From: Mesotaenium endlicherianum
Lineage: Eukaryota
DNA: 64,000 nt
NCBI GenBank assembly: GCA_009602735.1
Contig: WELA01000881.1
Location: 62,001 to 126,000 of the forward strand
Direction of reading: 5' to 3'
A program made the translations under genes and the position numbers. Under the pieces are notes generated by a model. It was not told the DNA's origin. It ran no database searches and saw only the letters and a program-made list of their open reading frames with translations. This document shows, piece after piece, positions 8,291-34,627 of the stretch (position 1 is its first letter; every line of letters begins with the position of its first letter).

Positions 8291-8847
8291 ATTATTAACT
8301 CCTAAACGATAAGTTGATCCATTTGGAAGATGGATGAATAGAGCGAGCTTCACAAATGTGGTCAACATAAAATTTATTATCATCACGAACGGATCGGACA
8401 GATTTCGGTTGGACCGTTGAAGTCAACCCGTGAACAACTTGTCGCCCCTAATGTATGGTTCCAAGAAAATGATATTGAATAGAGGGTAAGCTTTGTATTG
8501 AGGTAATATGTTTAATTTATAAACAATTTGATCTACGCGGCGTACCATCGAATATTAACCCACTTAGACAAAACAGCACATGGCTTTTTCTTGACCACTC
8601 AAGGAAGCTCAAGATTGAAGTACTTCTCACACGACCTGATGTATTATCCATGGATTACACCTTGAGTACTCGTGACATAATTAATAAGCACTCAAACAAA
8701 ATGATTCTTGACTTAATATAACGTAGTTATAGAGCTCGACGAAGTAGCAATCTAGATAGCGGAAGAATACGTCATAGAGTGATAAAAAAGAGCCCATATT
8801 AAGACAACTTGGAAAAAAAAAAAAAATCTATTCTGAGAGAGAGAGAG

Positions 8848-9550: not shown

Positions 9551-9563
9551 TATATATATACAT

Positions 9564-9596
<33 letters not shown>

Positions 9597-9944
9597 AGGA
9601 AGAGAGAGGCAGAGAGAGAGAGAGAGAGAGAGTCGCGGCATAGATCGTCGAGGATTGCACATGTTGAGTGAACGAAGCACTACTAAGTCTAGTCGGCAGT
9701 GGGTAAAAACCCCCCTAGAACTAAGTGGGGGAAAAGGTGATTGCCCTTCTTGGGAAGGAAAGCAAAGAAAACTATCATCAGATTATGACTCTTAATTTAT
9801 TAAAGTTTTTAATTAATCCCTTCATCCTAAAGAGAGAGTGAGAGAGCACTGAGCTAGGTTAATGAAACATGTGACATTAAGTGAATCGGCTTACCAATAA
9901 GGGTCTAGCATATAACAATAGATATTTATATTAGATAGTACTTT

Positions 9945-11199
9945 TCATGGTATTTTTTTGTAAACTTAACCAGCTAAAGACCACACAAGTAGCGTAAGCA
10001 ATATCACTAGTCAAATGCAAGTAACGAGCATCACTCATGCAACCAATAAACTCATACATAAGCAAGACTAGTAAGCAGTTCGTGTAACAACTTGCAACCT
10101 TGGTTTCAAGTATTCGCTCAGTAATATGTACAAAGAGTTGGCCTCGTTTTCAAACGTCGAACTACGTACAATGAAAGGGGGAAGGGTGCGGGGAGTGCGC
10201 CCATCCACATTCACGCACCCTCACCCGCGAGTGGAAGCGTGCACGAGGACCTTTCCTAGTTGCATACACAAGGTGGAGTGGCCTGGTGGTATGCCACCCT
10301 TGCAAGAGTTAGAGGGCTACATGAGAGAGGAGTGGAAAAGAACTCGCTTTATTAAGAAAAGTCGTGTACAAGATGAGAAGGTTAGACTAGACTAGAATAA
10401 GCCCCCTCTACCACTTTCTGCTTCCCATTTACCCTTTAACTCTAAGTGTCCTCTCTAGCAAAGTACCTCCAGAACCTTCTCCTATGGCTCCTTCTATGTA
10501 GGTGACCTTGCCTAGTTGGACAAGCTAGCACACTCACACGCACACAATCACGCTCTAGAATATTCTACTACACAATCCACTAACTGATCACGGAGTTTTT
10601 AGAAATTCCACGATCACTTTCGCACTCTACGTAATTGTACGTAGTTTCTGGAACCCTCATGTTTCAATGTCCAACTTCCTGGACTCCAACCGGAATTTTC
10701 GTCACTGGACCTGTCCTTGTCACTAAATAGAATCTGTGACAATAAAAACTCACTAAAAACTTCCAAAATTCATAACTTTCTCATTACTTGTCCAAATGAC
10801 TTGAAATAAAGGCCAAAGTTCTTCTAAAAATCACTCTATGCATATAAAATACTAGAAAGATACAAACTACACTTTGATAACCTTACATACAATACCTAGC
10901 ATATGTATATGGAATGAGTTTACTATTCAATCGCACCGCCTACCTGTGTGTTAACATCGTTGGTAAGACATCGTCCAACCAAATCCACAGCAATCTCCCA
11001 TCATCCCTAATCGCCATCCGCCTAAGGCGTTATTTGGCTATTCATCTAGCATATCACAATCAGATGTGTTATTAGGCAATTAGCTACTGTTGGCTGAGTT
11101 ATTATATTGAATATCAACTTAGGTTTAGCTGGCTTAATCCAATTAATCATTATACAATAAATTGAATAAATACATCTACCGATATACTGTTTCATTACA
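9945..11199 (-). mobile_element. Decayed TGTAATGA-family LTR interrupted by another solo LTR
   Basis: 9945-10171 and 10888-11199 join into one LTR-like sequence ending TTCATTACA at 11199. Confidence 0.75.
10172..10887. mobile_element. Solo LTR of an unrelated family, nested in the decayed LTR
   Basis: Termini TGAAAGG...CCTTACA. Perfect 5-bp TSD TACAA (10167-10171, 10888-10892). Confidence 0.8.
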
Positions 11200-11660: not shown

Positions 11661-12769
11661 CAGAGTATATCTCTACAAGTTTCCCACCAGGCGACTTTTG
11701 AGGTCAAATAGCTAAGTAAACAAGACGCGTCATAACTCGTTCACGAGTGAACGGACGTAGGTGACTTAGATAATTGACCACAAAATTTTGCGGTCACACT
11801 CGATTACCTCTCCTTCACTAATGGGGTTGGCCGGTGTGTACGTTGATTGGTCCGGAGACCCCTTCCCACTACCTAATAGTTCGTCGATCGGTGGTCGCTG
11901 TAGTAGGGCAGGTGGTTTGTGCTAAACCCCGATATGGGATGACGAGACACGTGTGAAAGTCGGTGGGGTAGCACAGAGCCGGGAGGATCTCATGGCAGCT
12001 CAAAAGCGACCTTGATCATGAGACCAGGGTTACGCCGTACGCCGTACGGGCCGACCCTCGTACGCTTAATTCAGCGTACTGAACCAGTACGCCATACTAA
12101 GCGTACGAATAATTTTCAACTCGTGTGCGCCGCCCAGTGGCGCGCCGACGTATTCACGTCTGGCACTGCACCCTCCGTTTCACTTATTAGTTTAAAATTG
12201 TCGTCGATCGAAGCGATGAAACGTGACAGTACATGCGAACAAGTTTTATCAGCAACGGCGGGAACATAAAAAAACAAGTGAAAGTTTCACCAATATTTGG
12301 GCCACCATGACATTGGTTCCAATTTCCCTCTCTTGCACATACGCATCTGCTTCGGTGTAGTGCAGCCGCGAATATTTACAAGCCAAACTTGAGGCCTACT
12401 TAACAGCTCTGTAGCCTCTTGTTGTTCATTCTACATCTGCTGATCATTCTTGTAAGTTTCTTTACCTCGTTTTCATGACCTCGCTTCCTCGCTTGCTTGT
12501 TCTTGTTACTTGTATATGTATTCATGTTTTGTTTATGGATGAATTTTATTTCGTTTCATTGTGGTTGGTTCTGGTAATGGATCTTCAATAAGGCTTAGGT
12601 CACTAGTGCTAACAATGTTCATATGAGTGGCAGGCCTACACAAAGAGCACAAAGTTGAACCCATCTAGTGCCTATCGACGTGCCACCGTCCACAGACAAT
12701 TGCATCAGGTCACATTCGCCTCTCCCCTCCTCTTTTCTGCTGTCTTTTTTGGCATGGGGGATCTATTTG

Positions 12770-14939
12770 GCTTGTCAGGGCTGGCTACCAGCCCCTTGCT
12801 TGCTTTTGTGGGGCTGGCTGCCACCCCTGAGCTTGCTTTTGGCGGGGCTGGCTGCCAGCTCCTGCTTGCTTTTGTGGGGCTGGCTGCCACCCCTGAGCTT
12901 GCTTTTGTCGAGGCTGGCTGCCAGTCCCCTGCTTGCTTTTGTGGGACTGGCTGCCACCCCTGAGCTTGCTTTTGTCGAGGCTGGCTGCCAGTCCCCTGGT
13001 TGCTTTTGTGGGGCTGGCTGCCACCCCTGAACTTGCTTTTGTCGGGGCTGGCTGCCAGCTCCTACTTGCTTTTGTGGGGCTAGCTGCCAGCCCCTTGCTA
13101 TTTTAAGATTTAAGTTGGGGCTGGCTGCCAGTCCCTCTCTTGCATTTGTCGGGGCTGGCTGCCAGTCCCTCTCTTGCTTTTGCCGGGGTTGGCTGTTAGC
13201 CACCTGCTTGCTTTTGGGGGGCTGGCTGCCAGCCCCTTACTTGGTAATTTAAGATTTTAGTTGGGGCTGCCTGCCAGTCCCTCTCTTGCGTTTGTCGGGG
13301 CTGCCTGCCAGTCCCTCTCTTCCGTTTGTGGGGCTGGCTGCCAGCCCTGAGCTTGCTTTTGTCGGGGCTGGCTGCCAGCTTCTGCTTGCTTTTGTCAGGG
13401 CTGGCTGCCAGCCCCCTGCTTGCTTTTGTGGGGCTGGCTGCTAGCCCCTTACTTGCTATTTTAAGATTTTAGTTGGGGCTACCTGCCAGTCCCTCTCTTG
13501 CATTTGTCGGGGCTGGCTGTTAGTCCCTCTCTTGCGTTTGTCGGGGCTGGCTGCCAGCCCCCTGCTTGCTTTTGTTGGGGCTGGCTGCCAGCTATTGCTT
13601 GCTTTTGTGGGGCTGGCTGCCAACCTCTTGCTATTTTAAGATTTTAGTTGGGGCTGACTGCCAGTTCCTCTCTTGCGCTTGTTGGGACTTGCTGCCAGCC
13701 CCCTACTTGCGTTTGTGGGGCTGGCTGCTAGCCCTGAGCTTGCTTTTGTCAGGGGTGGCTGACAGCCCCCTGCTTGTTTTTGTGGGGCTGGCTGCTAGCC
13801 CCTTACTTGCTATTTTAAGATTTTAGTTTGGGCTGCCTGGCAGTCCCTCTCTTGCAATTGTCGGGGCTGGCTGTTAGTCCCTCTCTTGCGTTTGTCAGGG
13901 CTAGTTGCCAGTCCCTTGCTTGCTTTTGTAGGGCTGGCTGCCACCCCTGAGCTTGCTTTTGTCGAGGCTGGCTGCCAGCCCCCTGCTTGCTTTTGAGGGG
14001 CTGGCTGCCAGCTCCTGCTTGCTTTTGTGGGGCTGGCTGCCAGCCTCTTGCTATTTTAAGATTTTAGTTGGGGCTGGCTGCCAGTTCCTCTCTTGCGTTT
14101 GTTGGGGCTGGCTGCGAGTCCCTCTCCTGCGTTTGTCAGGGCTGGCTGCCAGTCCCTTGCTTGCTTTTGTCGAGGCTTGCTGCCAGCCCCCTGCTTGCTT
14201 TTGTGGGGCTGGCTGCAAGCCCTGAGCTAAGTTTTGTCGGGGCTGGCAGCCAGCTCCTGCTTGCTTTTGTGGGGCTGGCTGCTAGTCTCTTGCTATTTTA
14301 AGATTTTAGTTAGGGCTTGCTGCCAGTTCCTCTCTTGCGTTTATTGGGACTGGCTGCTAGCCCCTTACTTGCTATTTTAAGATTTTAGTTCGGGCTGCCT
14401 GCCAGTCCCTCTCTTGCATTTGTCGCGGTTGGCTGTTAGTCCCTCTCTTGCGTTTGTCAGGGCTGGCTGCCAGTCCCTTGCTTGCTTTTGTAGGGCTGGC
14501 TGCCACCCCTGAGCTTGCTTTTGTCGAGGCTGGCTGCCAGCCCCCTGCTTGCTTTTGTGGGGCTGGCTGCTACCCCTGAGCTTGCTTTTGTCAGGTTGGC
14601 TGCCAGCTCCTGCTTGCTTTTGTGGGGCTGGCTGCCAGCCTCTTGCTATTTCTAGTTAGGGCTGTATAATGAATGCCGTCTCTTGCATTTGTCGGGGCTC
14701 GCTGCAAGTCCCTCTCCTGCGTTTGTCAGGGCTGGCTGCCAGCCCCCTGCTTGCTTTTGTGGGGCTGGCTGCCAGCCCTGAGCTTGCTTTTGTCGAGGCT
14801 GGCTGCCAGCTCCTGCTTGCTTTTGTGGGGCTGGCTGCCACCCCTGAGCTTGCTTTTGTCAGGCTGGCTGCCAGCTCCTGCTTGCTTTTGTGGGGCTGGC
14901 TGCCAGCCTCTTGCTATTTTAAGATTTTAGTTAGGGCTG
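12770..14939. repeat. Tandem array of the palindrome GGGGCTGGC-T-GCCAGCCCC with TGCTTGCTTTTGT-type linkers (left part)
   Basis: Dozens of ~30-35-bp units punctuated by TTGCTATTTTAAGATTTTAGTT. Continues after the LTR element at 23203. Confidence 0.95.
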
Positions 14940-15636
14940 TGTAATGAATCAGTATATTAGTACATATAATATTCATTTAAATATAATAGTTAAATAAGTT
15001 CAGCCTGCTGAACTTTAGTTAATAGTCAGTCTGCTGGACTTTACATAATTATCAGTTTAATGACTCAGTCGAAAGCAGCAGCCTGAAAGTCCATATAAGT
15101 CAGCTGGCTGACACATTCTTTGACAGCATTCCATACTCGGTAGCAGCGAACTGCCTTGATATGCATCAAAGTGCGATATGCTAGATGAATAGCCAGATGA
15201 CATCCCTATGATGGATGGCTATTCGGGATGATGGGATATGGCGGTGGATTTGGTTAACCGAGGTCCTACCAACGTGGTTAAGTCGCACTGACCGTTGAGC
15301 AGTAAACTCATTCCATGTACATATGCTAGGCATTGCCCTCGAGTTCGGCATTCGGAAACGAGGCCAACTCTCTTGTAAAGCTTATTGAGAGAGATCTGAA
15401 TCCAAGGCGACAAGCCATTGACACGCACTGTCTTCTAACCTTGCTTATGTATGAGTTTACTGATTTGCATTATTGATGCCTAGTTTACTCTCATTTGACT
15501 GACAAGTATTATGCACTGCTAGTGCGCTGTCCTTTTGCCGTTAAAACAGTTAACAAAAAATACCATAAAGATTACTTGCTGATATAAAGATCTTTATTAA
15601 TTGTTAATCGCCTATTTTGTAAGTCGATTCATTTCA
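14940..15636 (+). repeat. 5' LTR of family A copy 1
   Basis: TG...CA direct repeat of 22521-23202. Confidence 0.95.
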
Positions 15637-15637
15637 G

Positions 15638-15649
15638 TGGTATCGGAGC
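15638..15649 (+). promoter_or_regulatory. Primer-binding site TGGTATCGGAGC (initiator tRNA-Met type)
   Basis: 1 nt after the LTR end. One base away from the canonical plant TGGTATCAGAGC. Confidence 0.9.
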
Positions 15650-15670
15650 AGTTATCATAGTCTTCTTTGT

Positions 15671-17149
15671 ATGGTAAGGACAAGGTCTCAAACTAGCAAC
15701 TCCCGAGACATGGAGAACCAGGATAACGAGAATGTCGAAAACCAGGCGGAAAGCCATGTAGCGGGAACCCGTACCTATTCTGAAGCAGTAGCAGACACTG
15801 CAGCTAGGGAGGCTGCAGATGAGGCAGATGCTATTGTCTCAGTCGCAGCTCAGCAAACTGAGGGGGAGATAGCCTGACTAGAAGCTGAACAAGTAGCAAA
15901 GGCCGCTGAAGATGTACAAAGGAGGGAAGGACAGCCAGCTGACGAGCGAACTGTTGAAGAACTTATGGCATCAAGGGCCAATGTTCTGAACCCACCTCTT
16001 GCCGTACAACTCAATGTACCCCTAGGTCAAATACGTGACCAGCTGAATGCGGCAGGAATTGCTGCTGCAGGAGCAAGAGGGATTGTTGAGGACACTACTC
16101 AGCGAGTAGATGCCAATGCTGCTGCTGCATTTGCTAATCTACCACCCCAAAATGTAGACTTGGGAGCATTGTTCGTTCAGATGCAGTCGCAAATGGCGAC
16201 CATGTATCGGTTCCAGCAGGAGGTGAAAAGAATCATAATGTCCCTACTCCGGGAAAGAGACCAACTGGGGTCTCACACCACTAGTGCTGGTGGCCGAGGG
16301 CCTAGTAAGCCCAAGCCGAAACCTCCCCATGACTATGATCCTGAGGGAAACAGAAAATATTACCTGATCAAGTTTCTCGCGGATGTTGAGCAGTGGCTGG
16401 AGAACTACCCAGAACTGCAAACTTACGAGAAGGTCAGGCACACCGGTGCGCTACTGAAAGGCAGTGCCGCAGACTGGTGGCTTTACTGGAAGGAAGAGCG
16501 TAAGGCTCGGCAACTCGGTGACCCTACGTGGGTAGAGTTTGTCGAGAAGTTGCATGAGAAGTTTGATGTCATCAACCAGCAGGAGAAAGCTATCTATGCG
16601 ATGATCTCCCTGACACTGAAGCAGACCACTTCAGTTGCTGAGTTCGCTCAAAAGTTCCAAGAGAACATGATGAAGCAGCCGGATTTGCCAGAACGGTATA
16701 GGATAGCATCCTTCAGGTATGGCTTGAAATCCGAGGTCTCTGGTCATTGCGCTGAGAAAAAGTATGAGAAACTGGCTGACTTGATCCAGGATGCTGACGC
16801 CTGGGATCAGCAGCAGTTCAATCACAAGCGCCAGAGTAACGCTTTGGTGTCTAAGATTGTCAAAAAGCCCCACGGTTCCTACAATGCAGTTGAAGGAGAG
16901 CTGGCTGAGGATAATCAGGGTGATGAATATGAGTGTGAGTACGATGCTATTCAGTCTAGAGGTAGAGGTGGTCCCTCTCGAGGTAGCTATGGAAGGGGTG
17001 GTGGTAGGACTAAGCCGAGACCAGCCTCAGCAAAATCTACTTGCTACCATTGTCAGCAGAAAGGCCACTACAGAGAACAGTGTCCGGTCAAGCACCTGCC
17101 TAAGGTCGAGAGAAAAGACCAGCCTTTAAAAGACAGCAACAGTCAGTAA
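15671..17149 (+). pseudogene. gag: Gag (capsid-like + CCHC zinc knuckle) with a premature TGA at 15875-15877
   Basis: Near-identical to the intact 492-aa ORF at 62092-60614. [14 protein letters not shown] zinc knuckle. Confidence 0.93.
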
Positions 17150-20100
17150 TCCAGTCTACTGACTGTGAGGATGCTAGAGATAGTGAGTCGTCACTAGCTG
17201 CCCTCGTAGCAGGTATTATGGGTCCTGCTGAACTGGATTCACTATGCATGCCTGACAAACAGATAAAGGAGACCATCAGCAATATAGACGTCCAGAGAGT
17301 GCACACTCTGGATGCTCTTGTTCCACCTGATGTCCAACAATTCTTTGCTACGTCAAAACAACAATGAGAAAGTCAGGAAAAGACAGTCCCCCCTATCCTA
17401 CTGCATTGCATGATTGCAGGTAGGAAGGTGAGGGCATTTGTTGACGGAGGGGCGTCACATACCTTTATCCACAAGGACTTAGTTAAGCGGCTAAGGCTGC
17501 CTACTGTCACCCAAGGGAATAGAAAAATATTCCTTGGAGATGCCTCAAGTATCCCGGGAGGAGTTATAACCAAGCCTATTGAGGTCCAGTTAGGTTCTGG
17601 CATTGCAGTTCTAACTGAAACGCTTACATTTGAGGTACTCAACACTGGCTTTTATGATCTCGTGCTAGGCAGGTCCTGGCTTAATAGACATCAAGCTGAA
17701 GTGTGTTGGAGCAGAGGTACAGTTAAAGTGAGAGGAGCCAGTGATGGGCAGACTGACTTGGCACCCACCAGTGCTCTTCCTCTTGTCCTGTGTGGATGGC
17801 AAATGAAGGAAAAGAAGAGGCTTCCAGAAGGATGCAAGTTGCTGAATGCAATGGAGTTCGTCAAAAGCTGGAACCAGAAGGAAGACAGAATGTTCTGTCT
17901 GCTGCTAAGAGAGGTACCTCCTCAACCTGAAGAAGTGGTTGAGAAAAAGGTAAGCCCTCCGGAGCACCCTACTGCTGCAAAAATTGTTGCTCAGTACACT
18001 GATGTGTTTAACATGCCTCCAGGACTACCCCCTAAAAGGGAAGTAGATCATAGGATTGATCTATTACCTGGTAGCCAGCCACCCTGGCAACGCACTTATG
18101 GCTTGTCTTATTTGGAGAGCGAGGAGTTGAAAACACAGATTGCAGAGCTGGAGGAAAATGGTTACATTTCTCCCAGTAAATCACCGTACGGCGCACCTAT
18201 CCTATTTGTTAAGAAAAAGGATGGCAGTATGCGGATGTGTGTGGATTACAGAGCCCTGAACAGAATTACAGTAAAGAACAAGTATGCCTTACCCAGAATC
18301 GAGGACTTGCTTGATACCCTGTCTGGCGCTAAGGTGTTCAGTCAGATAGATCTCAAGAGTGGTTATCATCAAATCAGAATTGCTGAGGGGGATGAACACA
18401 AGACTGCTTTCCGCACACGTTATGGACACTATGAGTTCAACGTGATGCCATTTGGACTGACTAATGCTCCTGCTACCTTTATGGGTGCTATGAATGACAT
18501 TTTCAGACCTTATTTGGATAAGTTTGTGCAAGTTTTCCTGGATGATATTTTAATTTTCTCTATAGATGAAGCTCAGCACACTGAACACTTCAAAACAGTC
18601 CTGGACACTCTGCGGAAAAAACACTTGTATGCTAAAATGAGCAAGTGTGATTTCTTTAAGGAAAGTATTGAATTCTTAGGCCACGTTGTTAGTAAGGAAG
18701 GCATCAGTGTGGATCCTAAGAAAGTCCAGACCATACGGGACTGGCCACTACCACAGTCTATCTCTGAAGTTAGATCCTTCCTCGGGTTGGCTAACTACTA
18801 TACGAGATTTATTGAGAATTATTCCACAAAGGCCAGTAAACTGACTGACCTTACTAAGAAAGACATCGGGTATGTGTGGGGGGAAGCGCAGCGGGCTGCC
18901 TGCCAGACCCTTAAAGGTGCCCTTTGTTCCGCCCCAGTGCTATCCGTGTATGACCCCAGCAAATCGGTGCAGGTGGTTACTGATGCCTCTGATTTTGCCA
19001 TGGGTGCTATTTTGTTGCAGCCTGCTGACAAAACCACAAAGGATGGTAAGGTACGGCCGGAGTGGCATCATGTGTTGTATGAGTCTATGAAATTTAATCC
19101 AGCGGAGATTAATTACTCAGTGCATGACAAAGAGCTGCTAGCTATCATTCATGTACTCAAACAGTGGAGAGCATACTTACATGGTAAAGCTTTTAAGGTG
19201 ATTACAGATCATCTAGCTCTGACCCACTTTCAGAAGAAGTCCAAGCTGTCGAGGAGGGAGAACCGCTGGAGCCAGATGCTGGAGCAGTTCCAAGTCCAGA
19301 TCGACTACAAACCAGGGAAGTTGAATCCTGCTGATGCACTCTCTAGAAGACCTGACTTGCAAGAAAGGAACTTTAGTCAGCATGCTGTAGATAAAGTCCT
19401 GTGTGCACTCACTTCACTAAAGGTGAAAAAGTCCTTCCTTGAACAACTTAGGAAAGCCTACCTTTCTGACCCAACATTTGAGCCCAGCCCCACTACTGGT
19501 GTGTGTCGTGCTACTGCACTCGGGTATAAGCTTAAGGGAGGGGTCTGGGTGACTGAAACCACTTCAGGCAGGCTGAAGCTGGTCATTCCTAATAACTTGG
19601 AAATAAGGTCTCTCTTACTGAGTCAAGCTCATGACAGTCTCCTGGGTGGACATTTGGGGCAGGCCAAAACTGTTGGCAAATTGGCAAAACATTATCAGTG
19701 GGAGGGGTTACCCCGGGAGGTCTTAAACTATGTCAAGTCCTGTGACCAGTGTCAGAGAAATAAGTCTCGACACACACCACCAGGAGGTCTCTTGCAACCG
19801 CTGCCCATCCCAACTGGACGCTGGGAAACTATCCATGGACTGGGTGGTCTCACTACCAAGAACTGCCAACGGGCATGGTTCAATACTGATAGTTGTGGAT
19901 AAACTGACAAAAATGGTCATTTTTACCTCCCTGGTGTGGTCAAGAAAAAGCTTGGCCCTGTCTGGGTCGGTCCATATTCGGTGGTCCGTCGTGTCGGTCA
20001 GAATGCTTACAAACTGAACATGTCAGCTGAATACAAGGGGCACCCGGTCTTTAATGTCTCCTTCCTGGAACCATACATCAAAGGTGATACACTGTTCACA

Positions 20101-20346
20101 GGTCGGTTCCCTGTCCAACCGAGACCGGTCCCCGCTGTCCGGGACGGCGACCCTGAGGAATATGAGGTCGATGAGATTTTAGACGCTCGCTCGGTCCGTC
20201 GATCGTCTAAATATGTCATGAAATACCTCATTCGATGGAAGGGTTACGATGCCTCTGGGGACACTTGGGAGTTTAAGGACCACTTGACCAATGCCAAAGG
20301 GGCGTTGACACAGTTCCACCTCCAGGCCGCTGGATTCCCTCCGTAG
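17125..20346 (+). pseudogene. pol: Pol (PR-RT-RNaseH-truncated integrase-chromodomain), disrupted
   Basis: FVDGGAS protease, FLDD RT, TDASD RNase H, HHCC integrase N-terminus and YEVDEIL...YLIRWKGY...TWE chromodomain. Relative to copy 2 it has a stop at ~17366, a frameshift near 19835 and a deletion of the integrase core at ~19925. Confidence 0.93.
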
Positions 20347-20731
20347 CTGTCATTTCAGTTGACACGGGAAGGTGACAGGCGGTCCTGTCTCCATTTAAGT
20401 TGGAGGGGAAAATATATGACAGTTAGTGAGGAGAGCAATAAAAGAACAGTTACGTGAATCCTAAGTGTCAGCATAGTGACAGAGGGGACAGCCTGGCCCA
20501 CATAAAGCACCTTGAGCTGAAGGAAAAAGGGGCCTCGCACAACACCACAACACTCACCCTAAAACACACTCATACGTTTATGTGTAGCGCATCGCAACTA
20601 CGTCAACTTTTAGCAATCATCCTGTAAGGTAAACAGCAGCGAAGCCACTATACTAATAGTAACATACTTCCTGCAATCCCTCTGACAAAATTCCATATCC
20701 TACTAACTGGTGCCCTGGTTACATGTGCAGG

Positions 20732-22407
20732 ATGGCGCCCACCACACAAAAGGAGGACAGAAAGCGCAAGGCAGAAGAAGCCAGGAGGACAATGGAGCAA
20801 TACCAGAAGGAGCTGGCGGCGACGTCCCTCACCAGGAGAGAACAAGAAAGGGTCCGCAAACAACAAGAGGCGGCAGAAGAGGCACAGAGGAAGAAGGATC
20901 AGGAAGCGGAAAACCTCAGGAAGGCCGAGGAGGAGAGACAAAAGAAACAGCAAGAAGAAGCGGCAGCGGTAGAAGAGGAGAAAAGGAAAAGATTGAAGCG
21001 GACAGACAAAAGAGCTTGGCCACATACAAGTATACTGTGCTGGGTGGCCAAAACTTCGATAACCTGAAGGAAACATTGCTGGCAGCCCAGGAGATCAACA
21101 GGCTGGAACAGACAACACTGCTACAGAAGGAAGGAGCAACAGCACTGGATAGGTACATCGAGACACACACCGGCGTGGTCCTTTACGAAGATTATGCTAA
21201 GTTGGTGGGCTATACAGCGGAGCAGGCCCGGTATCTCGCAGATGATTCAGAGGACAAGCCGGTCCCCATACCGGGAATAGTGGGAGATCAGAGACTCATC
21301 CGGATGGTGAGCATGCGGCCCGATAGCTTTAAGGATACGGTATTCTACCTCACACTCCTGCCAGCTTACAATGAAGTTGAGAGAAGGAGCTGGGAGTACT
21401 TGGCCAGGGAAGCAGGACAGCAGATGTTCTCTCCCCACTGGTTCCCGTGTAAACTGAGGAAGGCTGAGCACGGACCCCAGTACTACCAGCAGCCAACAGA
21501 CTGGAGGTGGATGACCGTCACAAATAAGAAGCAGGAGTGTGACCGAGCCCAACCGGATGACTTCCACTATGGCCTAGACGGCTATCTCATCCTACCACCT
21601 CACATTGCCCCTTGGGACCCCAGGCTGAATGGATGCCTGAGCAATATGAATGCAGAGACCAAGGAACATAGGAGGAGGGGAAGAGACTACTTCTCTAAGG
21701 GAAAGCATGCCTTTGTCAAATGGGCAAAGAATGCAGGCCGGATAGATATCAGTAGGCTGAAGGCCAAGCAACCTCCAGCGCGCCCTAAGAAAGGGAGGTC
21801 GGTAGACTACTCCATGTCTACTAGGGAGCAGGACGACTTAGTGGACGAGACCCCTACTCTCTCCGAGGAGGAGGATGAGGAGGATGAGGAAGAAGAACAA
21901 GGCAGAGGAGAAGCATCAGCAGCAGGTACTCAGGATACCCAGGGACAGGCAGTGGCACTTCCTAAAGAACCACAATCAGGTGTTTGGAATGTGATCCCCG
22001 TTATGGCGACAACTGGACCCCGCGCTCGCTCCCCCAGTCCACCTGCCCAAGCAGGGGAAGAAGGTGATCTGACTGTACTAGGCAGCAGACAGAGACAGAA
22101 ATCCCCAGAGAACAGGGGTGCCAGAAGAGGGACACGCGGGTGGGCCAGAGGTATGCCAGCCTCCCCCTCTGCTCATGGGCATGTACCTCTAGCCAATGTA
22201 TTTCAGCATCCTACTGGAATGCCTGTCTATGTGGGAATCAACACCCAAGTGGTTGAAGAGCAGGCTACCATCCTTCGTTCTCCTCGAGGTCCAACTTTAG
22301 AGCAAACCGGGTTCTTTAGAAGGCCAGCTGACAGACCTAGAGGGCTGTCCAGATCTAGGTCCAGATCTCCGTCTCCTGACCCTGAAGCCCCAGGAACCAC
22401 CCCTTAA
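20732..22407 (+). CDS. ORF3: uncharacterised accessory protein of the retrotransposon (coiled-coil N-terminus, conserved W/Y-rich core, acidic tract, RS-rich tail); one frameshift near 20980-20990
   Basis: Joining ORF 20723-21067 (MAPTTQKEDRKRKAEE...) to ORF 20710-22407 gives a protein colinear with 56503-54955. Shared motifs include YNEVERRSWExLARE, PTDWRWMT and LPPHIAxWDPRL. Confidence 0.8.
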
Positions 22408-22520
22408 GGTGACAGGCTGAAAAGATAGTCAGTAAGGGAGGCTGGTCAGGGTCAGTTTCTTTATTTAAAGCTTTTGCAGTTTAATGTTGTCGAGGCGACA
22501 ACAAGTTAAGTTGGAGGGAT

Positions 22521-23202
22521 TGTAATGAATCAGTATATTAGTAGATATAATATTCATTTAGATATAATAGTTGATTAAGTTCAGCCTGCTGAACTCTAGT
22601 TAATAGTCAGTCTGCTGGACTTTACATAATTATCAGTTTAATGACTCAGTCGAAAGCAGCAGCCTGAAAGTCCATATAAGTCAGCTGGCTGACACATTCT
22701 TTGACACNTACATTCCGTACTCGGTAGCAGCGAACTGCCTTGATATGCATCTAAGTGCGATATGCTAGATGAATAGCCAGATGACATCCCTATGATGGAT
22801 GGCTATTCGGGATGATGGGAGATGGCGGTGGATTTGGTTAACCGAGGTCCTACCAACGTGGTTAACTCCCGGGTAGGCGGTGCCATCGCACTGACCGTTG
22901 AGCAGTAAACTCGGCATTTGGAAACGAGGCCAACTCTCTTGTAAAGCTTACTGAGAGAAATCTGAATCCAAGGCGAGAAGCCATTGACACGCACTGTCTT
23001 CTAACCTTGCTTATGTATGAGTTTACTGATTTGCATTATTGATGCCTAGTTTACTCTCATTTGACAGACAAGTATTATGCATCGCTAGTGCGCTGTCCTT
23101 TTGCCGTTAAAATAGTTAACGGAAAATACCATAAAGATTACTTGCTGATATAAACATCTTTATTAATTGTTAATCGCCTCTTTGGTAAGTCGATTCATTT
23201 CA
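22521..23202 (+). repeat. 3' LTR of family A copy 1
   Basis: Direct repeat of 14940-15636, preceded by PPT TAAGTTGGAGGGAT. Confidence 0.95.
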
Positions 23203-24170
23203 GGCTGGCTGCTTGTCCCTCTCTTGCGTTTGTCGGAGCTGGCTGCCAGCCCCCTGCTTGCTTTTGTTGGGGCTGGCTACCAGCTCCTGCTTGCTTTTGT
23301 GGGACTGGCTGCCAGCCTCTTGCTATTTTAAGATTTTTGTTGGGGCTGGCTGCTTGCTCCTCTCTTGCGTTTGTTGTCACAGGCTGCTTGCCCCCTACTT
23401 GCTTTTGTGGGGCTGGCTGCTAGCCCTGAGCTTGCTTTTGTGAGGGCTGGCTGCTAGCCCCGTGCTTGCTTTTGTGGGGCTGGCTCCTAGCCCCTTACTT
23501 GCTATTTTAAGATTTTAGTTGGGGCTGCCTGCCAGTCCCTCTTTTGCATTTGTCGGGGCTGGCTGCGAGTCCCTCTCCTGCGTTTGTCAGGGCTGGCTGC
23601 CAGTCCCTTGCTTGCTCTTGTCGAGGCTGGCTGCCAGCCCTCTGCTTGCTTTTGTGGGGCTGGTCGCCACCCCTCAGCTTGCTTTTGTCGGGGCTGGCTG
23701 CTTGCTCCTGCTTGCTTTTGTGGGGCTGGCTGCCACCCTTGAGCTTGCTTTTGTCGGGCTGGCTGCTAGCTCCTGCTTGCTTTTGGGGGGATGGCTGCCA
23801 GCCTCTTGCTATTTTAAGATTTTAGTTGGGACTGGCTGCCAGTCCCTCTCTTGCGTTTGTTGGGGCTGGCTGCCAGCCCCCTGCTTGCTTTTGTTGGGGT
23901 TGGCTGCCAGCTCCAACTTGCTTTTGTGGGGCTGGCTGCCAGCCTCTTGCTATTTTAAGATTTTAGTTGGGGCTGGCTGCCAGTTCCGCTCTTGCGTTTG
24001 TTGGGACTGGCTGCCAGCCCCCTACTTGCTTTTGTGGGGCTGGCTGCTAGCCCTGAGCTTGCTTTTGTCAGGGCTGGCTGCCAGCCCCCTGCTTGCTTTT
24101 GTGGGGCTGGCTGCTAGCCCCTTACTTGCTATTTTAAGATTTTAGTTGGGGCTGCCTGCCAGTCCCTCTC
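23203..24170. repeat. Palindromic GGGGCTGGCTGCCAGCCCC array (right part)
   Basis: Same units as 12770-14939. Confidence 0.95.
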
Positions 24171-25544
24171 TTACATTTTGGAGCTGCTGTTGAAAGATAA
24201 AAGAGCTCGAGGGCATAATGGATAGCTTCAAGCACTTGGTCCAGTTTGTTGCAAACCACCACATGCCTCACGCTCTTTACCGTGAGCATGGGGCAAGGCT
24301 TGGAAATAATTTGGAGTTGTTGAAGCCAGGGCCCACGAGGTTTGCTAGTAAATTCCTTTGCTTGCAAAGACTCATCGTTGTGAGGGATACCTTACAAGCT
24401 ATGGTGTCTGAAAGAAGATGGTTTGAGTGGGCGGCAAAGAATGGTTGTGTAGGTGAGGTCACGGAGATTAGAGACCTAGTTCGCAACGATGAACTTTGGG
24501 AGCGAGTGAAGGTATGGATAGCTGTGTGTGAGCCGATCGTAGTTCTCCTTCGACTAGTTGACTCTCCACAACCTTCTCTCGGGAAGATCTGGGCTCCCAT
24601 GAGTGCCATTAAAGAGCATGTGCTTGAGGTTGAAGGACTCAAACCGACACAAAGAACCCAACTTAAGAAGGACGTGAAGGCTCGCCGGGACCAACTTCAC
24701 AGCCCCCTACATTCTGCGGGTAAAAGTCTATTTTGATGTTGCTCACCTTTCTTGTTCGGCGGCTGCTGTTCTCTTGCATGCTTGTTATTGTGAGTTGATC
24801 ATTGTTATTGTTATTGTGCTTGTTATTGTTATTGCTCTCTTTTTTGTGATGTGCATTGCGCTCTCATATACTGAGTGTGCTTCTTGACTTTGTTTTGCTA
24901 GAGGCTACTATCTGGACCCCGAGTTCCAAGACCATCAGTCTTGGGCAGTTGAGAAGTGTCTACTAACCGATTGGTCCAACGTGCGGAGTACCCTTGTCGG
25001 AGGGAGTGTGCTCGATCGAGCGTTGGTGGATCGAGAGTTGGCACTCTACCAGCAGAGCGGTGACATTTTTGGCGATGATGTTTGCAAGGCTAATAAGACC
25101 ATGATGCCTGCTCACAAGTGGTGGGAAACATACGGAAGTCATTGTCCTAACCTTCAGCTTCTTGCTATGAGAATATTGTCACAACCTGGTTCAGCAGCTG
25201 CATGTGAGAGAAATTGGTCTGAGTACGGGTTTGTTCATAGTCCGATTCGCAATAGGCTGCTCCCTACTAGAGCAAAGAAGTTGGTGTACGTGCATTCTAT
25301 GTTGAGACTTCAGGAGAAGAGCTTGGACTTCCTTGGACCAAGTGTTGGCGCCACTCCATGGGTTGAAGAAGCGGAGTTCTTGGAGACACCTGAAGAGGAG
25401 GGTCTCAATCTTGCCATGCATGCCTCGTTGAGTGAGGAACAGGAGATAGAGGTAGAGGATGAGGAGGTGGAGGAAGAGGAGGTGGAGGAGCGACCTAGTG
25501 TTTTAGCTCCAGGAAGAAGGAGGCTTAGAGAGATCGGTTACTAG
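24170..25544 (+). pseudogene. hAT transposase, C-terminal half only (intron ~24720-24903)
   Basis: PGPTRFAS, HSPLHSAG|YYLDP and the hAT dimerisation motif WWETYG...CPNLQLLAMRILSQPGSAAACERNWS. The N-terminal half is deleted relative to 30459-31450. Confidence 0.9.
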
Positions 25545-27720: not shown

Positions 27721-28340
27721 TGTAATGAATCAATTCCTTATTTATTTAATTAATTGCATGTATAAATACAACACTAAACAAGTGTTATGTCACTATACTG
27801 ACATGCGCGAGGTCATTTAAATGAATGTATGTCGATGTAATGCGAGTTTACTTACTTTCGCAAAAAATTTAGCAAGATGACGTTTGCATCTTAGTGTAGT
27901 TTGTTGAGATGTACATATGAGCTTTAGGATATATTATCAAGAAAGCTCGCTTGATATTAGTTAGTATACTTAGCTTCAGTACGCTGAGGATAGATATTTT
28001 CATTTAGATTGTTATTTGTAAATTGGCACATGTGACCGTAGTATACTGAAAGACGGGAGGTCGACTGAGATTTGGTAAACCGATGTCCTACCAGTGTGGT
28101 TAACTCTTGGGTAGGCGGAGCCGTCGTCAGTCAACTGAACGGTTAGGACTTTAGTCAATCGACCAATTGATATGGTCGTTATACCTAGATCCATGGGTCC
28201 CAACTTAACGGGTTTCCTACGAGATGGCGCACCTTGCGCCGTGGTCAACCAAATGGTCACTAGGTACATAGCAGGCTGGGATCTCGTGGTCTCTCATTCT
28301 GGACAGTAGGCTTTACAGTCGGACTCCTACTTGCACTTTT
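27721..28340 (+). mobile_element. Truncated distant relative of the TGTAATGA LTR family
   Basis: Begins TGTAATGAATCA. 28068-28120 (GATTTGGTAAACCGATGTCCTACCAGTGTGGTTAACTCTTGGGTAGGCGG) matches the family core. Right end not defined. Confidence 0.6.
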
Positions 28341-28354
28341 TGGGTTCGTTCTAA

Positions 28355-30330
28355 CCAGCCCCGTGCTTGCTCTTGTCGGGGCTGGCTGCCAGCCCCTTGC
28401 TTGCTGCTGTTGGGGCTGGAGGCCTGGGCGTGCTTGCTGTATAGGGTTTAGTCTGGGCGGGCTTGCTTGCTGTTTTAGGGTCTAAGTTGAGGCTGGGTGA
28501 TGTAGTGCTTGCTCGTGTCGGGGCTGGCGGCCAACCGCGTGCGTGATCTTGTTGGGCCTGGCTGCCAGCCCCTTGCCTGCTTTTGTGGGACTGGCTGCCA
28601 GTTCTTTGCGTGCTATTTGAGGATTTTAGTCAGGGCGGATTGGCTGCCCCTTGCTTGCTCTTGTTGGAGCTGGCTGCCAGCCCCGTGCTTGCTCTTGTTG
28701 GGGTGGCTGCTAGCCCTTTGCTTGCCGCTGTTGGGGCTGGAGGCCAGCCCGTGCTTGCTGTTTAGGATTAAGTTGAGGCGGGCTTGCTTGCTGTTTTAGG
28801 GCGTGTGTGATCTTGTCAGGCCTGGATGCCAGCCCCTTGCATGCTTTTGTTGGGCTGGCTGCCAGTCTTTTGCGTGCTGTTTGAGGGTTTTAGTCGGGGC
28901 GGATTGGCTGCCCCTTGCTTGCTCTTGTTGGGGCTGGCTGCCAGCCCCGTGCTTGCTCTTGTTGGGGCTGGCTGCCAGCCCCTTGCTTGCTGCTGTTGGG
29001 GCTGGGGGCCTGCGCGTGCTTGCTGTTTAGGGTTTAGTCGGGGCGGGCTTGCTTGCTGTTTTAGGATCTTAGTTGAGGCTGGGTGTTGTCGTGCTTGCTC
29101 GTGTGGGGGCTGGCGGCCAACCCCGTGCGTGATCTTGTCGGGGTTGGCTGCCAGCCCCTTGCTTGCTGCTGTTGGGGTTGGCGGCCAGCCCGTGCTTGGT
29201 GTTTAGGGTTTAGTCGTGGCGGGCTTGCTTGTTGTTTTAGGGTTTTAGTTGGGGCAGGCTGTTGTCCTGCTTGCTTGTGTCGGGGCTGGCGGCCAACCCC
29301 GTGCATGCTCTTGTCGGGGCTGGCTGCCAACCCCGTGCGTGCTCTTGTCGAGCCTGGATGCCAGCCCCTTGCATGCTTTTGTGGGGCTGGCTGCCAGTCC
29401 TTTGCGTGCTGTTTGAGGGTTTTAGTCGGGGCGGATTGGCTGCCCCTTGCTTGCTCTTGTTGGGGCTGGCAGCCAGCCTCGTTCTTGCTCTTGTCGGGGT
29501 TGGCTACCAGCCCCTTGCTTGCTACTGTTGGGGCTGGAGGCCAGCCCGTGCTTGCTGTTTAGGGTTTAGTCGAGGCGGGCTTGCTTGCTGTTTTAGGGTC
29601 TTAGTTGAGGCTGGGTGTTGTCGTGTTTGCTCGTGTCGGGGCTGGCGGCCAACCTCATGCGTGGTCTTGTCGGGGCTGGCTGCCAGCCCCGTGCTTGCTC
29701 TTGTTGGGGCTGGCTGCCAGCCCTTTGCTTGCTGCTGTAGGGGCTGGGGGCCTGCGCGTGCTTGCTATTTAGGGTTTAGTCGGGGCGGGCTTGCTTGCTG
29801 TTTTAGGGTCTTAGTTGAGGCTGGGTGTTGTCGTGCTTGCTCGTGTCGGGGCTGGCGGCCAACCTCATGCGTGGTCTTGTCGGGGCTGGCTGCCAGCCCC
29901 GTGCTTGCTCTTGTTGGGGCTGGCTGCCAGCCCTTTGCTTGCTGCTGTAGGGGCTGGGGGCCTGCGCGTGCTTGCTATTTAGGGTTTAGTCGGGGCGGGC
30001 TTGCTTGCTGTTTTAGGGTCTTAGTTGAGGCTGGGTGTTGTCGTGCTTGCTCGTGTGGGGGCTGGCGGCCAACCCTGTGCGTGATCTTGTCGGGGTTGGC
30101 TGCCAGCCTCTTGCTTGCTGCTGTTGGGGCTGGCAGCCAGCCCGTGCTTGCTATTTTAGGGTTTAGTCAGGGCGGGCTTGCTTGCTGTTTTAGAGTCTTA
30201 GTTGGGGCTGGCTGTTGTCCTGCCTGCTTGTGTCGGGGTTGGCGGCCAACCTCATGCGTGCTCTTGTCGGGGCTGGCTACCAGCCCCTTGCTTGCTGCTG
30301 TTGGGGCTGGCGGCCAGCCCGTGCTTTTGT
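28355..30330. repeat. Palindromic GGGGCTGGCTGCCAGCCCC array with TTTAGGG-containing linkers; ~210-bp higher-order repeat
   Basis: Directly visible. Near-identical 210-bp blocks start at ~29580, ~29790 and ~30000. Confidence 0.95.
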
Positions 30331-30458
30331 TGAGATTGCCTGCTCTCTTGTTTGCCTATTGTTGTGTTTTTGCTTGTTTATATGGCATTTGAATGGCATG
30401 TTGTTATGTCTCTTACAAGTTGTTACTGTACTTCATTATTGCAGGTTTCACGCGCATC

Positions 30459-32807
30459 ATGTCTCAACCATGCACTTCGTCTGGAGCATCGCTTGGTGGA
30501 ATGAGGGCGTCCACTGTAGCTTTAACCGCTCGTCTTCCCCCTAGGGCAATTGCTGCAAGGTCTGGTCCAGAGTGGGGCCATGTGACCATCGTTGTGGAAG
30601 CCAAGTCCAAGAATTCATATCCGAAGGTGAAGTGCAACTACTGCCCCAGGGAGTTTACCGGTGGAGTCACGCGGATTCGTGGCCATTTCACAGGAGGCTG
30701 TAAGGATGTTAGTCAGTGTGAGGATGTTCCCGATGAAGTTCTAGATCTCATGATTAGCCGTAGAAACCGTATGGCTAATTCTTTATTAGGAACGCGACGT
30801 AGGAAGAGTACAAGCTGCACGAAAGCGCGTGCATGAATGGGGTTGTGCAAGTGCTGGAGAGTCCCCCTCCTTAGGCAGGGAGTCAGGGCAAACCTCTATA
30901 AGTGACATGTTGCAGAAGATGAATGCTGATGCTGTTCATGAGACTGTCGTCCGTTTCTTCTGTGGCACTGGTTGCTCATTCAATGTTGCTCGCCGTGACT
31001 TCTTTAGGAACATGTTGGTTGCTGTCAGTAAGTACACCTTAGAAACGGGTCTTGTGTATGTCCCGATGAAGGATAAGCCTCTCAGAAGTACCCTACTAGA
31101 TAAAGAGGTGTCGAAGATAGAGGCTTGGGAGAAGAAACAAAAAAAGGGACTACCACAGATGGGTTGTAGCATTGTAGCAGATGGGTGGACCGATCCATGT
31201 GGGCACCCTCTTCTTAACGTGCTTATGGTTGTGGGAGGCACTGAAATGTTCATGGATGCTATCAACACTGAGGGTGAAAGAAAAACGGGTGAGTATATTG
31301 GTAGCCACCTGCTTGCGGCCGTGGAGAAAATAGGGGCCGATCATGTCGTACAACTTTGCAGAGACTCTGCAGCTAACATTGTAGCTGGTTGTAATGTGGT
31401 TCTTGAGAAGCACCCGCATATATATATTGGACGCCTTATGCTGCTCACATTTTGGACGTGCTGTTGAAAGACATAGGAAAAGTATAAGAGCTAGAGGGCA
31501 TAATTGATAGCTTCAAGCACTTGGTCCAGTTTGTTGCAAACCACCACATGCCTCACGCTCTTTACTGTGAGCATGGGGCAAGGCTTGAGAATAAACTAGA
31601 GTTGTTGAAGCCAGGACCCACGAGGTTTGCTAGTAACTTCCTTTGCTTGCAACGACTCATTGTTGTGAGGGATACCTTACAAGCTATGGTGTCTGACAGA
31701 AGATGGCTCGAGTGGGCGGCAAAGAACGGTTGTGTAGGTGAGGCTACGGAGATTAGAGACCTAGTTCGCGACGATGAACTTTGGGAGCGAGTGAAGGTAT
31801 GGGTAGCCGTGTGTGAGCCGATTGTAGTTCTCCTTCGACTAGTCGACTCTCCACAACCTTCTCTTGGGAAGATTTGGGCTCGCCTGAGTGCCATTACAGA
31901 GCATGTGCATGAGATTGTAGGACTCAAACCAGCACAAATAACCCAAGTTAAGAAGGACGTGAAGGCTCGCTGAAGGCAGCTTCACAGCCCCCTGCATTCT
32001 GCAGGTAAAACTCTATTTTGATGTTGCTCACTTTTTTGCTTGGCGGCTGGCGTTCTCTTGCATGCTTGTTATTGTGTGCTGGTCATTGTTTTTGTGTTTG
32101 TGCTTGCTATTGTTATTGCTCTCTCATTTGTGAAGTGCATTGTGTTGTCATATACTAAGTTTACTTCTTGACTTTGTTCAACTACAGGCTACTATTTGGA
32201 CCCCGAGTTCCAAGACCATGAGTCTTGGGCAATCGAGAAGTGTCTACTAACGGATTGGTCCGACGTGCAGAATACCCTTGTTGGAGGAAGTGTGCTTGAC
32301 CGAGCATTGGTGGATCGAGAGTTGGCGCTCTACCGGCAGAGCGGTGACATTTTTGGCGATGATGTTTGCAAGGCTAATAAGACCATGATGCCTGCTCACA
32401 AGTGGTGGGAAACATACGGAAGTCATTGTCCTAATCTTCAGCTTCTTGCTATGAGAATATTGTCGCAACCCGGTTCAGCAGCTGCATGTGAGAGAAATTG
32501 GTCTGAGTACGGGTTTGTTCATAGTCCACTTCGCAATAGGCTGCTCCCTACTAGAGCAAAGAAGTTAGTGTACGTGCATTCTATGTTGAGACTTCAGGAG
32601 AAGAGTTTGGACTTCCTTGGACCAAGTGTCGGCGCGACTCCATGGGTTGAAGAAGCGGAGTTCTTGGAGACATCTGAAGAGGAGGATCTCAATCTTGCCG
32701 TGCATGCCTCGTTGAGTGAGGGGATGGAGGTGGAGGAAGAGGAGGTGGAGGAGCGACCTAGTGTTTCCGCTCCACTAAGAAGAAGGCCAAGAGCGATTGG
32801 CTACTAG
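30459..32807 (+). pseudogene. hAT transposase (BED zinc finger, DUF659-type catalytic region, hAT dimerisation domain); intron 32005-32187; stops and frameshifts present
   Basis: W...KCNYC...GGVTRIRGH...C BED finger, IVADGWTD, DSAAN, AAHILD, TRFASNF and CERNWS. Premature stops near 31479 and 31971. Confidence 0.92.
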
Positions 32808-34627
32808 ATGTGTTTGTCAGTTAACTTGTATGTACTAAAGGTAGCATGTACATATTAAAGAAAAAAAAGGAGGTTGAGAAAATGAATATATTTGAAATCA
32901 ATTTTTTATGCCCTATGACTTCATGGAATGTGGTACTTTGTGAATGACTTACATGGTATGGATTACCTCTAACTTCTTATGCATGCTTGCAAAGAGTATG
33001 ATTCATGTTTATACTTCTACATTAAAGCTCATTTACTCGTTTTAGAAGTAATGATACTCCTAAGTGTTCTTATTGAATCAATTGGCTAGTTAAAATGTAC
33101 AAAAAGCATGCTCTGCAAAGTGGCCCTCCCAGAAAAAGAGAGTACAAAAATAATCCTTAATCTATCTTCAATCACTCTTGAATGTGGCATTTATAATAAC
33201 TTCTTAGTTGTTAGACATGCTTGCTAAGATGTTGAATTATATTTATACCTCTTCATTGAAGCTTGTTGTACTCGACTAAGAAGTAATGATACTGCTCAAT
33301 GGTCTAATTCAACAAATATATAAGTTAGGAAATACAAAAAAGAACTTTGCTAAGCGGCCCTCCCAGCTTTGACATGATTGAATGTCGTCTAGATGGTACA
33401 TAAACAAAGCGCTTACAAGACATTTTATATAAAAACAAGAATGCGGGTTGTCGTAAGCTACTTATAGTGAAAAATTGGTAAATCGTCGCTTCCGGCAGCT
33501 GATGGCGGGGGTTCGAGCCCGACGGTTGGCGCCCGGGGCTCCGTTTTGTGGAAATCCGTGATTTCCTTTTCGCCAAGCGTTTTTGCCCTAATAAATACGT
33601 AATTATGATCGCGAAGTTATAAGAAACGTGCATGGCTGGTTGGGTAGTGTCTTATCCCTGCACCCGGCGGTGGGTGTTCAAATCCGCTTGCTTACATCCC
33701 TAAATAGCAGAAGTTCAAAGTAGGTTTCGAAATTGTCGCCGCAACCCGGGCAGAGAGCAGATCCGAAACTGCCCGAAAAAGTTACCGGTCACTTTGAACG
33801 AAATAAACAGTCTGACATGACGTGCTTTTTGTACACGTGCGACCGACATGTAATGTCAACGTCGTCGCTACTGCACGTCGACGCCGTTGTGACGTTGGCG
33901 TACTAAGCGTTTTAAGCGAACTAGTCCATTTTTTTGAACACCGATCTAAGCGAACTAGCGTATTAGTCGAACTAAGCGTACAAGCGTACGGCGTAACCGT
34001 GGGAGAAACACTAGTCCTCAGGCTCGCCTCTTTCTTGTTCCTTGTATTAGTGTGCGACTATGGCACACTACGGTATGGGGAGTCAAGTGTAGTGATTTGA
34101 GTTATTATATATTTGTATGCATATATTTTAATGTTTTCAAATATATTTGGAGTGGTTTTGTGTGGAGTCAGGTGTGAATAAGTACTCTAGTAACTTGGTT
34201 CATGTCCTTTGAACCTTCCAAGGCATTTTCGAAGTTAGAGGAAAGACCTAGAAGAACTCCATGTGGCAAAAGTCAAATGTGCCATTTTTAGGTCAAAAGG
34301 ACATGTGTACATTATTCTAGAAAGAGGTGGCAAGTTTTGGGATGTGTTGGGTGCCAACACATCAACATACACCTTCCTAGAAATTACTTATGTAGCAAGT
34401 ATATAAACAAGAGCTAGAACATAGAAAGACATTCCAGAATCACTCTTGTACTTGCCAAAATCCAGAAATATATTAACTTTCAAGAAGCCATCTCTCTTTC
34501 AAGAAGCTACCACTTGTGTTCAAAGATCCTTGTCTTGAATAGATAAAGTATTCTGTTTTACTAAGTACTTTATCTATCTGTTTCACTACAGTGGTATCGG
34601 AGCTAGGCACTTTGGTAGCACAAGAAG

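Follow-up and report, generated by a model that had tools for sequence, protein, structure and literature searches.

Two ancient versions of an accessory gene between the polypurine tracts of one chromovirus family in Mesotaenium endlicherianum

Two complete chromovirus copies and a third gene

The window analyzed here is a 64,000-nt stretch of Mesotaenium endlicherianum DNA (contig WELA01000881.1). It contains two complete copies of one high-copy, chromodomain-bearing Ty3/gypsy family: element 1 at 14940–23202 on the forward strand and element 2 at 62836–54031 on the reverse strand. Pfam matches follow the same order in both (capsid, zinc knuckle, protease, reverse transcriptase, RNase H, integrase, SH3, and chromodomain), which is the order of a chromovirus, and the chromodomain (E 1e-9) is C-terminal after PR-RT-RH-IN. 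The other traits of Ty3/gypsy chromoviruses are also present, namely long terminal repeats (LTRs) of the form TG...CA, 5-bp target-site duplications, a primer-binding site, and a polypurine tract (PPT). The two insertions are judged to be independent and fairly young because the LTRs of each pair are 96.5% (element 1) and 98.9% (element 2) identical.

Element 1 begins with a 5′ LTR at 14940–15636 (TG...CA; target-site duplication GGCTG), followed by the primer-binding site (15638–15649), gag with a Ty3 capsid domain and zinc knuckle (15878–17149; Pfam), and a broken pol encoding PR-RT-RH-IN-SH3-chromodomain (17368–20346), the integrase of which has a gap of approximately 586 nt compared with element 2. 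Downstream lie an internal polypurine tract, PPT1 (20397–20407), an open reading frame that we call ORF3 (20732–22407), a hairpin shared by both elements together with the normal tract, PPT2 (22485–22520), and the 3′ LTR (22521–23202). Element 2 has the same layout on the reverse strand: 5′ LTR (62127–62836; target-site duplication CCTAG), gag and pol with the chromodomain (56829–62140; a single in-frame stop at 57609), PPT1 (56768–56778) with a second internal PPT copy (56707–56717) and clustered GTGACAG words across 56707–56778, ORF3 (54835–56503), the shared hairpin and PPT2 (54750–54785), and the 3′ LTR (54031–54749). The Gag of element 2 (60614–62140, reverse strand) carries an Ala/Glu-rich N-terminal extension of approximately 230 aa ahead of its capsid domain. 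The primer-binding sites of both elements are presumably of the tRNA-Met type.

An earlier note, made from the letters alone, had described a sense-strand ORF between the chromodomain and the 3′ LTR of each element. The ORF is present in both, at approximately 557 codons each, and all of the shared sequence blocks that the note listed were found in both copies. Its description of a single frameshift in each holds for copy 1, which runs from an ATG at 20732 to a stop at 22407 (approximately 558 codons) and is broken near 20985–21010. Copy 2 starts at an ATG at 56503 on the reverse strand and has an in-frame stop at 54955 in addition to its frameshift near 56018; homology continues past that stop up to 54835, giving approximately 556 codons. 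The protein is not env-like, as had been proposed: no transmembrane segment was found in the four pieces (highest 19-residue Kyte-Doolittle mean, 0.91), and the N terminus is charged.

Of the 24 public sequencing runs listed, 20 contained half or more of the version-1 words, and these represent 7 studies and 5 organism labels; the run richest in the words may be the window's own sample. The depth of version 2 relative to gag-pol was 0.27 in run X8, 0.31 in X1, and 0.25 in X2 (all three DNA-type runs), and that of version 1 was approximately 0.9 in X8 (one DNA-type run); these are rough values from summed contig depth and not copy numbers. The two versions coexist in X8 at very roughly 3:1. The copy-1 frameshift was missing from all four X8 contigs that span the site. 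In X1, more than 99% of the depth over the position of the copy-2 stop (46 contigs) did not show it, nor did any of the covering depth in X2 and X8; the copy-2 frameshift was missing from 62% of the X1 depth (21 contigs), from all of X2, and from three of three RNA reads. The ORF3 breaks are mostly private to the copies in the window. An open frame that runs from 20707 through the N terminus of copy 1 is put down to the frameshift and the A/G richness of the DNA there because the contigs from other copies do not have the break.

The closest full-coverage relatives of the RT-RNase H region are approximately 60% identical. A member of the Tekay clade would be expected to group with seed-plant chromoviruses in this region. 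In a FastTree phylogeny of 80 sequences (the query plus those 79 database rows, out of 84, that passed a coverage filter, with no labeled clade references), the element fell outside the seed-plant group of Tanacetum/Solanum/Gossypium/Paspalum (support 0.99–1.0) and among environmental sequences, with weak support along the backbone. No self-priming complement of at least 8 nt was found between the 25 nt after the LTR and the LTR itself, and the element does not show the Tcn1 trait of self-priming without a tRNA primer-binding site. We take its chromodomain to carry the aromatic residues of group I, judging by their positions. Self-priming is found in 83% of Tcn1 clade members, and the group I aromatic motif is described as limited to non-seed plants (PMC6317226). 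This motif and the intron-rich pentapeptide-repeat gene at 42–48 kb both suggest that the host is a non-seed plant or an alga. Chromovirus clades of ferns and lycophytes are mostly known from PCR fragments (PMC2864245; PMC3350952).

Elsewhere in the window, 34088–40563 is occupied by a second chromovirus family with an open pol of 1230 aa, a different polypurine tract, and no long ORF past the chromodomain. A nest of older LTR relatives (67–81% identical) fills 6325–11066 and includes an integrase remnant (8426–8570) and a decayed PPT1-like motif near 7015–7040. Minisatellite arrays of 34/176 nt lie at 12700–14939, 23203–24200, and 28200–30400, and element 1 is inserted in one array. Duplicated hAT remnants (DUF659 and hAT dimerisation domain; 87–93% identical) occur at 24192–25544 and 30790–32807. 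An intron-rich host gene with pentapeptide repeats and a BTB-looking domain spans 42640–48040 and is presumably FIP2/KCTD9-like.

Divergence of ORF3 and the boundaries of the cassette

The earlier note had spoken of two diverged variants. This is correct for the ORF3 block and incorrect for the elements as a whole, which are 97.7% identical over gag-pol (97 differences in 4275 nt). The two ORF3 proteins are approximately 43%–49% identical: 43% over 361 aa for the core and tail (E 5e-93) and 44% over 78 aa for the stretch between the two frameshifts, with a nucleotide identity of about 50%–60% in a gapped alignment of the block. The pieces were compared one by one, each in its own frame, and the direct comparison rests on two full copies. 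In the core, identity at the three codon positions was 0.64/0.70/0.43; the third position was the least conserved in every piece, and 52 of the 97 identical core residues are encoded by different codons. The pN/pS ratio was 0.38 for the core (95% bootstrap, 0.31–0.47), 0.49 for the N-terminal coil, 0.49 between the breaks, and 0.46 for the tail; synonymous sites are saturated (pS 0.70–0.81), so these values exceed the true dN/dS. Among the 24 best-supported differences listed between version-2 copies, with the stop position omitted, 11 were synonymous and 13 non-synonymous, a synonymous share above the quarter expected without selection.

These values bear out the proposal that ORF3 is under purifying selection. 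The outcome that would have spoken against it, dN/dS near 1 with no unbroken copies, was not seen, and most contigs from other copies are free of the breaks in the window. ORF3 is almost certainly a real accessory gene; it is family-wide, non-env, and under purifying selection.

Synonymous divergence between the two elements is 0.016 in gag and approximately 0.04 in PR-RT-RH, and it climbs toward ORF3, from a dS of 0.02–0.04 to approximately 0.12 at the integrase end (0.11–0.12). By this measure, the ORF3 versions are estimated to have split long before the gag-pol backbones that now carry them because fast adaptive change cannot saturate synonymous sites. From saturated ORF3 beside gag-pol at a dS of 0.02–0.04, we infer that the block was swapped by recombination, and it is very likely that ORF3 has been exchanged as a cassette. 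The LTRs of the two elements are 91%–92% identical to each other, i.e., 8%–9% apart, which suggests crossovers on both flanks.

The boundaries of the presumed cassette coincide with polypurine tracts. Identity between the elements stops at PPT1, directly after pol (20397–20407; 56778–56768), with the exception of a shared 13-nt word immediately behind it, and returns at a 19-nt hairpin that precedes PPT2 (22485; 54785). The 11-nt polypurine tract occurs five times in the window, always at cassette boundaries, the extra internal copy of element 2 included. The likeliest exchange route is template switching at sites of reverse transcriptase priming or pausing; two RNAs packaged together would swap the ORF3 block at the PPT blocks they share. 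Recombinants between CRM chromovirus subfamilies are prolific and have been put down to template switching or nested insertion (PMC4079200). In that account, the recombinants shuffle LTRs and segments of the polyprotein, whereas here it is an accessory gene that is exchanged. Loose contig ends in run X1 differ from both window versions at both boundaries, a hint of further cassette types.

The word GTGACAG was also noted at the cassette edges. Seven of its ten occurrences in the window lie in non-coding cassette edges (20372, 20476, and 22409; 56738–56803), and two of these are common by descent. Over the whole window the word is not enriched (10 found versus 9.5 expected). TGACAG resembles a TALE-homeodomain site, and the cassette-edge copies are possibly binding words.

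The ORF3 protein and its transcripts

Both ORF3 starts read CAG-G-ATG, with CTAAC 23–24 nt upstream and an AG/GT donor 102 nt (element 1) or 108 nt (element 2) upstream. The predicted 5′-UTR introns are 102 nt at 20629–20730 (branch point, 20703–20707) and 108 nt at 56505–56612 on the reverse strand (branch point, 56533–56529), each ending in a CAG acceptor. The regions upstream of the two starts cannot be aligned beyond the first 33 nt, yet the splice-like signals are kept. Among the 2128 ATGs on both strands of the window, 56 have the acceptor, 6 the acceptor and branch point, and 3 the donor as well; both ORF3 starts match this full pattern, which was defined after its sighting. Three of the four LTRs also carry a donor-like GGTAAG at their end (among them 23184 in element 1 and 62145 in element 2), as do both gag starts (62090 in element 2). 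From these signals, we predict that ORF3 is probably read from a separate spliced transcript. The ORF3s of other elements are typically expressed from their own spliced mRNA (PMC5408684).

RNA data were sparse. Version 1 had zero depth in seven of seven bins in all three RNA runs (6%–12% of each run sampled), and no RNA run was among the runs listed with version-1 words. In RNA run X23, reads in the expected sense orientation covered 55782–56375 of version 2 at a depth of approximately 3 (about a dozen reads), and depth in the same orientation over the end of pol was 0–0.35. The sense reads in X23, the one RNA run examined for them, were confined to the 5′ half, with none over most of the 3′ half. 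No spliced ORF3 read was found among the joints listed, and gag-pol RNA was low in the samples examined. Reads in the opposite orientation were seen over the 3′ end of pol in all three runs (19643–20479; 56376–58454), and at version 2 they ran from the 5′ end of the cassette back into pol at a depth of 2–4. This opposite-strand RNA possibly reflects antisense transcription from a bidirectional promoter, or else read-through at a single locus.

The protein has a basic start, a charged coiled-coil-like stretch, a conserved core of approximately 270 aa with two or three cysteines, an acidic tract, and an S/TP-rich tail. The N-terminal 84–95 residues are 77%–79% E, K, R, Q, and A. The tails are Arg-rich and contain 9–10 S/TP sites, one conserved short motif, and six (version 1) or three (version 2) RS pairs. 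This anatomy points to a nuclear, self-associating regulator.

The earlier note had recognized no domain family in ORF3, in agreement with our searches, which gave no match above noise in Pfam (E ≤ 10), PHROGs, or NCBIfam; at the profile level, the Pfam search (E ≤ 10) likewise gave no match above noise to the domains of known plant accessory ORFs, PF03078 (Athila ORF1), PF04195 (Transposase_28), and PF10536 (plant mobile domain), or to VANC. Among 5.8 billion clustered proteins, a search restricted to 254–811 aa gave 734 candidates with none at E ≤ 0.001, and one restricted to 350–2000 aa gave 4103 candidates with none at E ≤ 1. Two matches from a profile search of 1.84 billion representatives were rejected as tandem-repeat proteins whose weak repeats had been summed (best pairwise, 24–27 bits). 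The sole match among PDB sequences was at E 0.32, phage tblastn returned four records at E 6–10, and pattern matches in viral and metagenome contigs were confirmed in 0 of 50 and 0 of 269 cases. The ORF3 profile matched nothing at 82 loci of distant chromodomain elements (≤34%–39% identity; best E 0.1), where the long ORFs after the chromodomain were mostly gag and pol on seemingly circularly permuted contigs. Four of the metagenome loci (L066, L043, L001, and L035) have non-gag-like ORFs of 220–360 aa behind the chromodomain that do not match ORF3.

The best ESM Atlas scores, 0.79 and 0.83, were inside the range of shuffled proteins. A lead to C5 cytosine DNA methyltransferase (PF00145; Atlas score, 0.83) was rejected: hhalign, covering similarity over motifs I, IV, and VI, gave probabilities of 0.15% and 0.08% against six methylases, and there was no Pfam match. 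AlphaFold2 confidence was low (pLDDT 39 with a three-row alignment; 35 with a single sequence), and fold searches with the pLDDT-39 model (none at E ≤ 0.001 in the PDB and viral sets; best Z 3.7 in VIA) were uninformative on fold. The searched RNA of the ORF3 cassette had no Rfam match.

Relation to known accessory genes and possible roles

Sense 3′ extra ORFs are already known, in chromoviruses too, and the statement in the earlier note that chromoviruses normally encode only gag-pol was too strong: the REXdb survey reports a sense 3′ extra ORF in 18% and a 5′ extra ORF in 33% of 782 Tekay chromoviruses (PMC6317226). The same survey records none for Tcn1 (1500 elements), Galadriel, Reina, CRM, or Chlamyvir. 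The plant Ty3/gypsy eORF-3′F or aORF-3S class (PMC6317226; PMC7264820) is described as similar to ORF3 in place, orientation, length above 250 codons, family-wide occurrence, and the absence of a known domain. ORF3 differs from plant sense 3′ extra ORFs in having no transmembrane segment, in residing in an element whose chromodomain presumably has the group I aromatic residues, and in the position of that element's RT-RH outside the seed-plant clade in our tree. The 314 extra-ORF groups of REXdb may nevertheless include ORF3 or a relative.

Among other accessory proteins, the Tekay 5′ aORF of sunflower and grasses (PMC11728184) is, by its description, a conserved chromovirus protein with a predicted nuclear localization signal, helices, and long disorder; it is located upstream of gag and is largely disordered, whereas ORF3 lies 3′ of pol and has a conserved aromatic core. 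CERV of the C. elegans element Cer1 (PMC10309623) is a nuclear accessory protein made from a spliced mRNA and subject to proline-directed phosphorylation, but its reported G and M domains with a Cys loop have no counterpart motif in ORF3. VANC of the VANDAL transposons (PMC13547354) is likewise a coiled-coil accessory protein predicted to oligomerize, but it is described as MAIN-related and comes from DNA transposons, whereas ORF3 has no Pfam match above noise. What is new is a protein without a detectable relative that exists in two ancient versions, very likely swapped between the two polypurine tracts of a single backbone. We found no account of the ORF3 protein or of a PPT-bounded ORF3 cassette in the open-licence literature.

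Architecture and analogy suggest, tentatively, that ORF3 is a nuclear trans-regulator that keeps transcription of the element switched on, in the manner of Tas or VANC. For the VANC-like anti-silencing role raised in the earlier note, too, these two are what speaks in favor. The basic start would provide for nuclear import and the coiled coil for self-association; the protein would act in trans on the chromatin or promoter of the element, as a trans-activator or an anti-silencer, and the acidic tract and conserved tail motif would contact host proteins. Its separately spliced mRNA would start at a promoter immediately after PPT1 or use a donor in the LTR leader. The aORF proteins of plants are frequently nuclear, and gene23 of Grande is reported to have its own promoter (PMC7264820); foamy viruses have an internal promoter as well as a central PPT, and they encode Tas between env and the LTR (PMC7828637). 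No DNA-binding or chromatin domain was detected in ORF3, and its CpG depletion (0.41–0.47) equals that of pol (0.41–0.43), which gives no indication that ORF3 is locally shielded from methylation. A PPT-bounded, exchanged ORF3 encoding a nuclear protein that sustains the element's own transcription is the best explanation as a whole, and we hold it as one possibility, well short of probable. A bolder form of the same idea, which we consider improbable, is that the versions constitute an ancient multi-allelic regulator locus with a new core fold: self-contained, self-recognizing modules, each with its own promoter, intron, binding words, and protein, would be swapped at the PPTs, and the polymorphism would be kept by competition between versions or by escape from host silencing, as retroviruses swap env.

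The splice signals would also suit a Rev- or CERV-like RNA factor, made from the spliced mRNA, that lets unspliced genomic RNA escape splicing and exit the nucleus. With strong donor-like sites at the LTR end and gag start and an acceptor ahead of ORF3, an intron would remain in the genomic RNA; the Arg-rich tails with their S/TP sites and RS pairs fit such a factor, and Cer1 offers a precedent, since export of its genomic RNA depends on CERV, which must be phosphorylated (PMC10309623). However, no strongly structured RNA was found between PPT1 and the ATG (120-nt windows, z −1.4 to +0.9), and in a scan of the cassette and the end of pol only a 3′ hairpin stood out (z −2.2 and −3.3); together with the absence of an Rfam match and of a CERV-type Cys loop, this makes the reading rather unlikely. 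We assign a similarly low likelihood to ORF3 being a gene captured from the host, or part of a different mobile element, with a function (as an enzyme, a movement protein, or other) unrelated to regulation of the element. Capture of extra ORFs and their sharing among elements are common (PMC5408684; PMC9289625), the predicted intron and promoter-like region would suit a captured gene, and the DNA directly behind PPT1 begins LTR-like, so the cassette may be what is left of a second element or of an older LTR. Nevertheless, the searches of 5.8 billion clustered proteins and 1.84 billion representatives gave no host or transposable element homolog, the methyltransferase lead failed (hhalign, 0.1%–0.2%), and the non-coding DNA of the cassette does not match any LTR in the window.

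A cofactor that steers the integrase complex, or aids nuclear entry as part of the particle, could account for the basic start and the long charged helix, and aORFs have been proposed to shape insertion preference (PMC11728184) and to act in nuclear entry (PMC7264820). This role is doubtful, as the element already carries a chromodomain, and versions less than 50% identical share a near-identical integrase, which argues against tight contact between the two. The two versions could instead mark a compatibility or interference locus under frequency-dependent selection, with the backbone recombining freely and each version favoring its own cassette type or blocking the other. Both versions occur in one run (X8), divergence increases toward the cassette as it would beside a balanced locus, and the loose ends in X1 hint at more cassette types; but one or two ordinary recombinations between old subfamilies would yield an identical picture without selection for diversity, and such recombinants are reported to be common in CRM chromoviruses (PMC4079200). 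We therefore regard an interference locus as improbable too.

What extra ORFs do in the LTR retrotransposons of plants is described as an open question (PMC7264820), and the elements studied here provide a natural experiment: two ORF3 versions less than 50% identical occur side by side in the same genomes, each with the same gag-pol, so expression, methylation, insertion site, and copy age can be compared directly by the version carried. The residues kept through saturated divergence mark the working parts of the protein. If exchange does occur at the polypurine tracts, it would also show a simple way for retrotransposons to swap accessory genes with one another.
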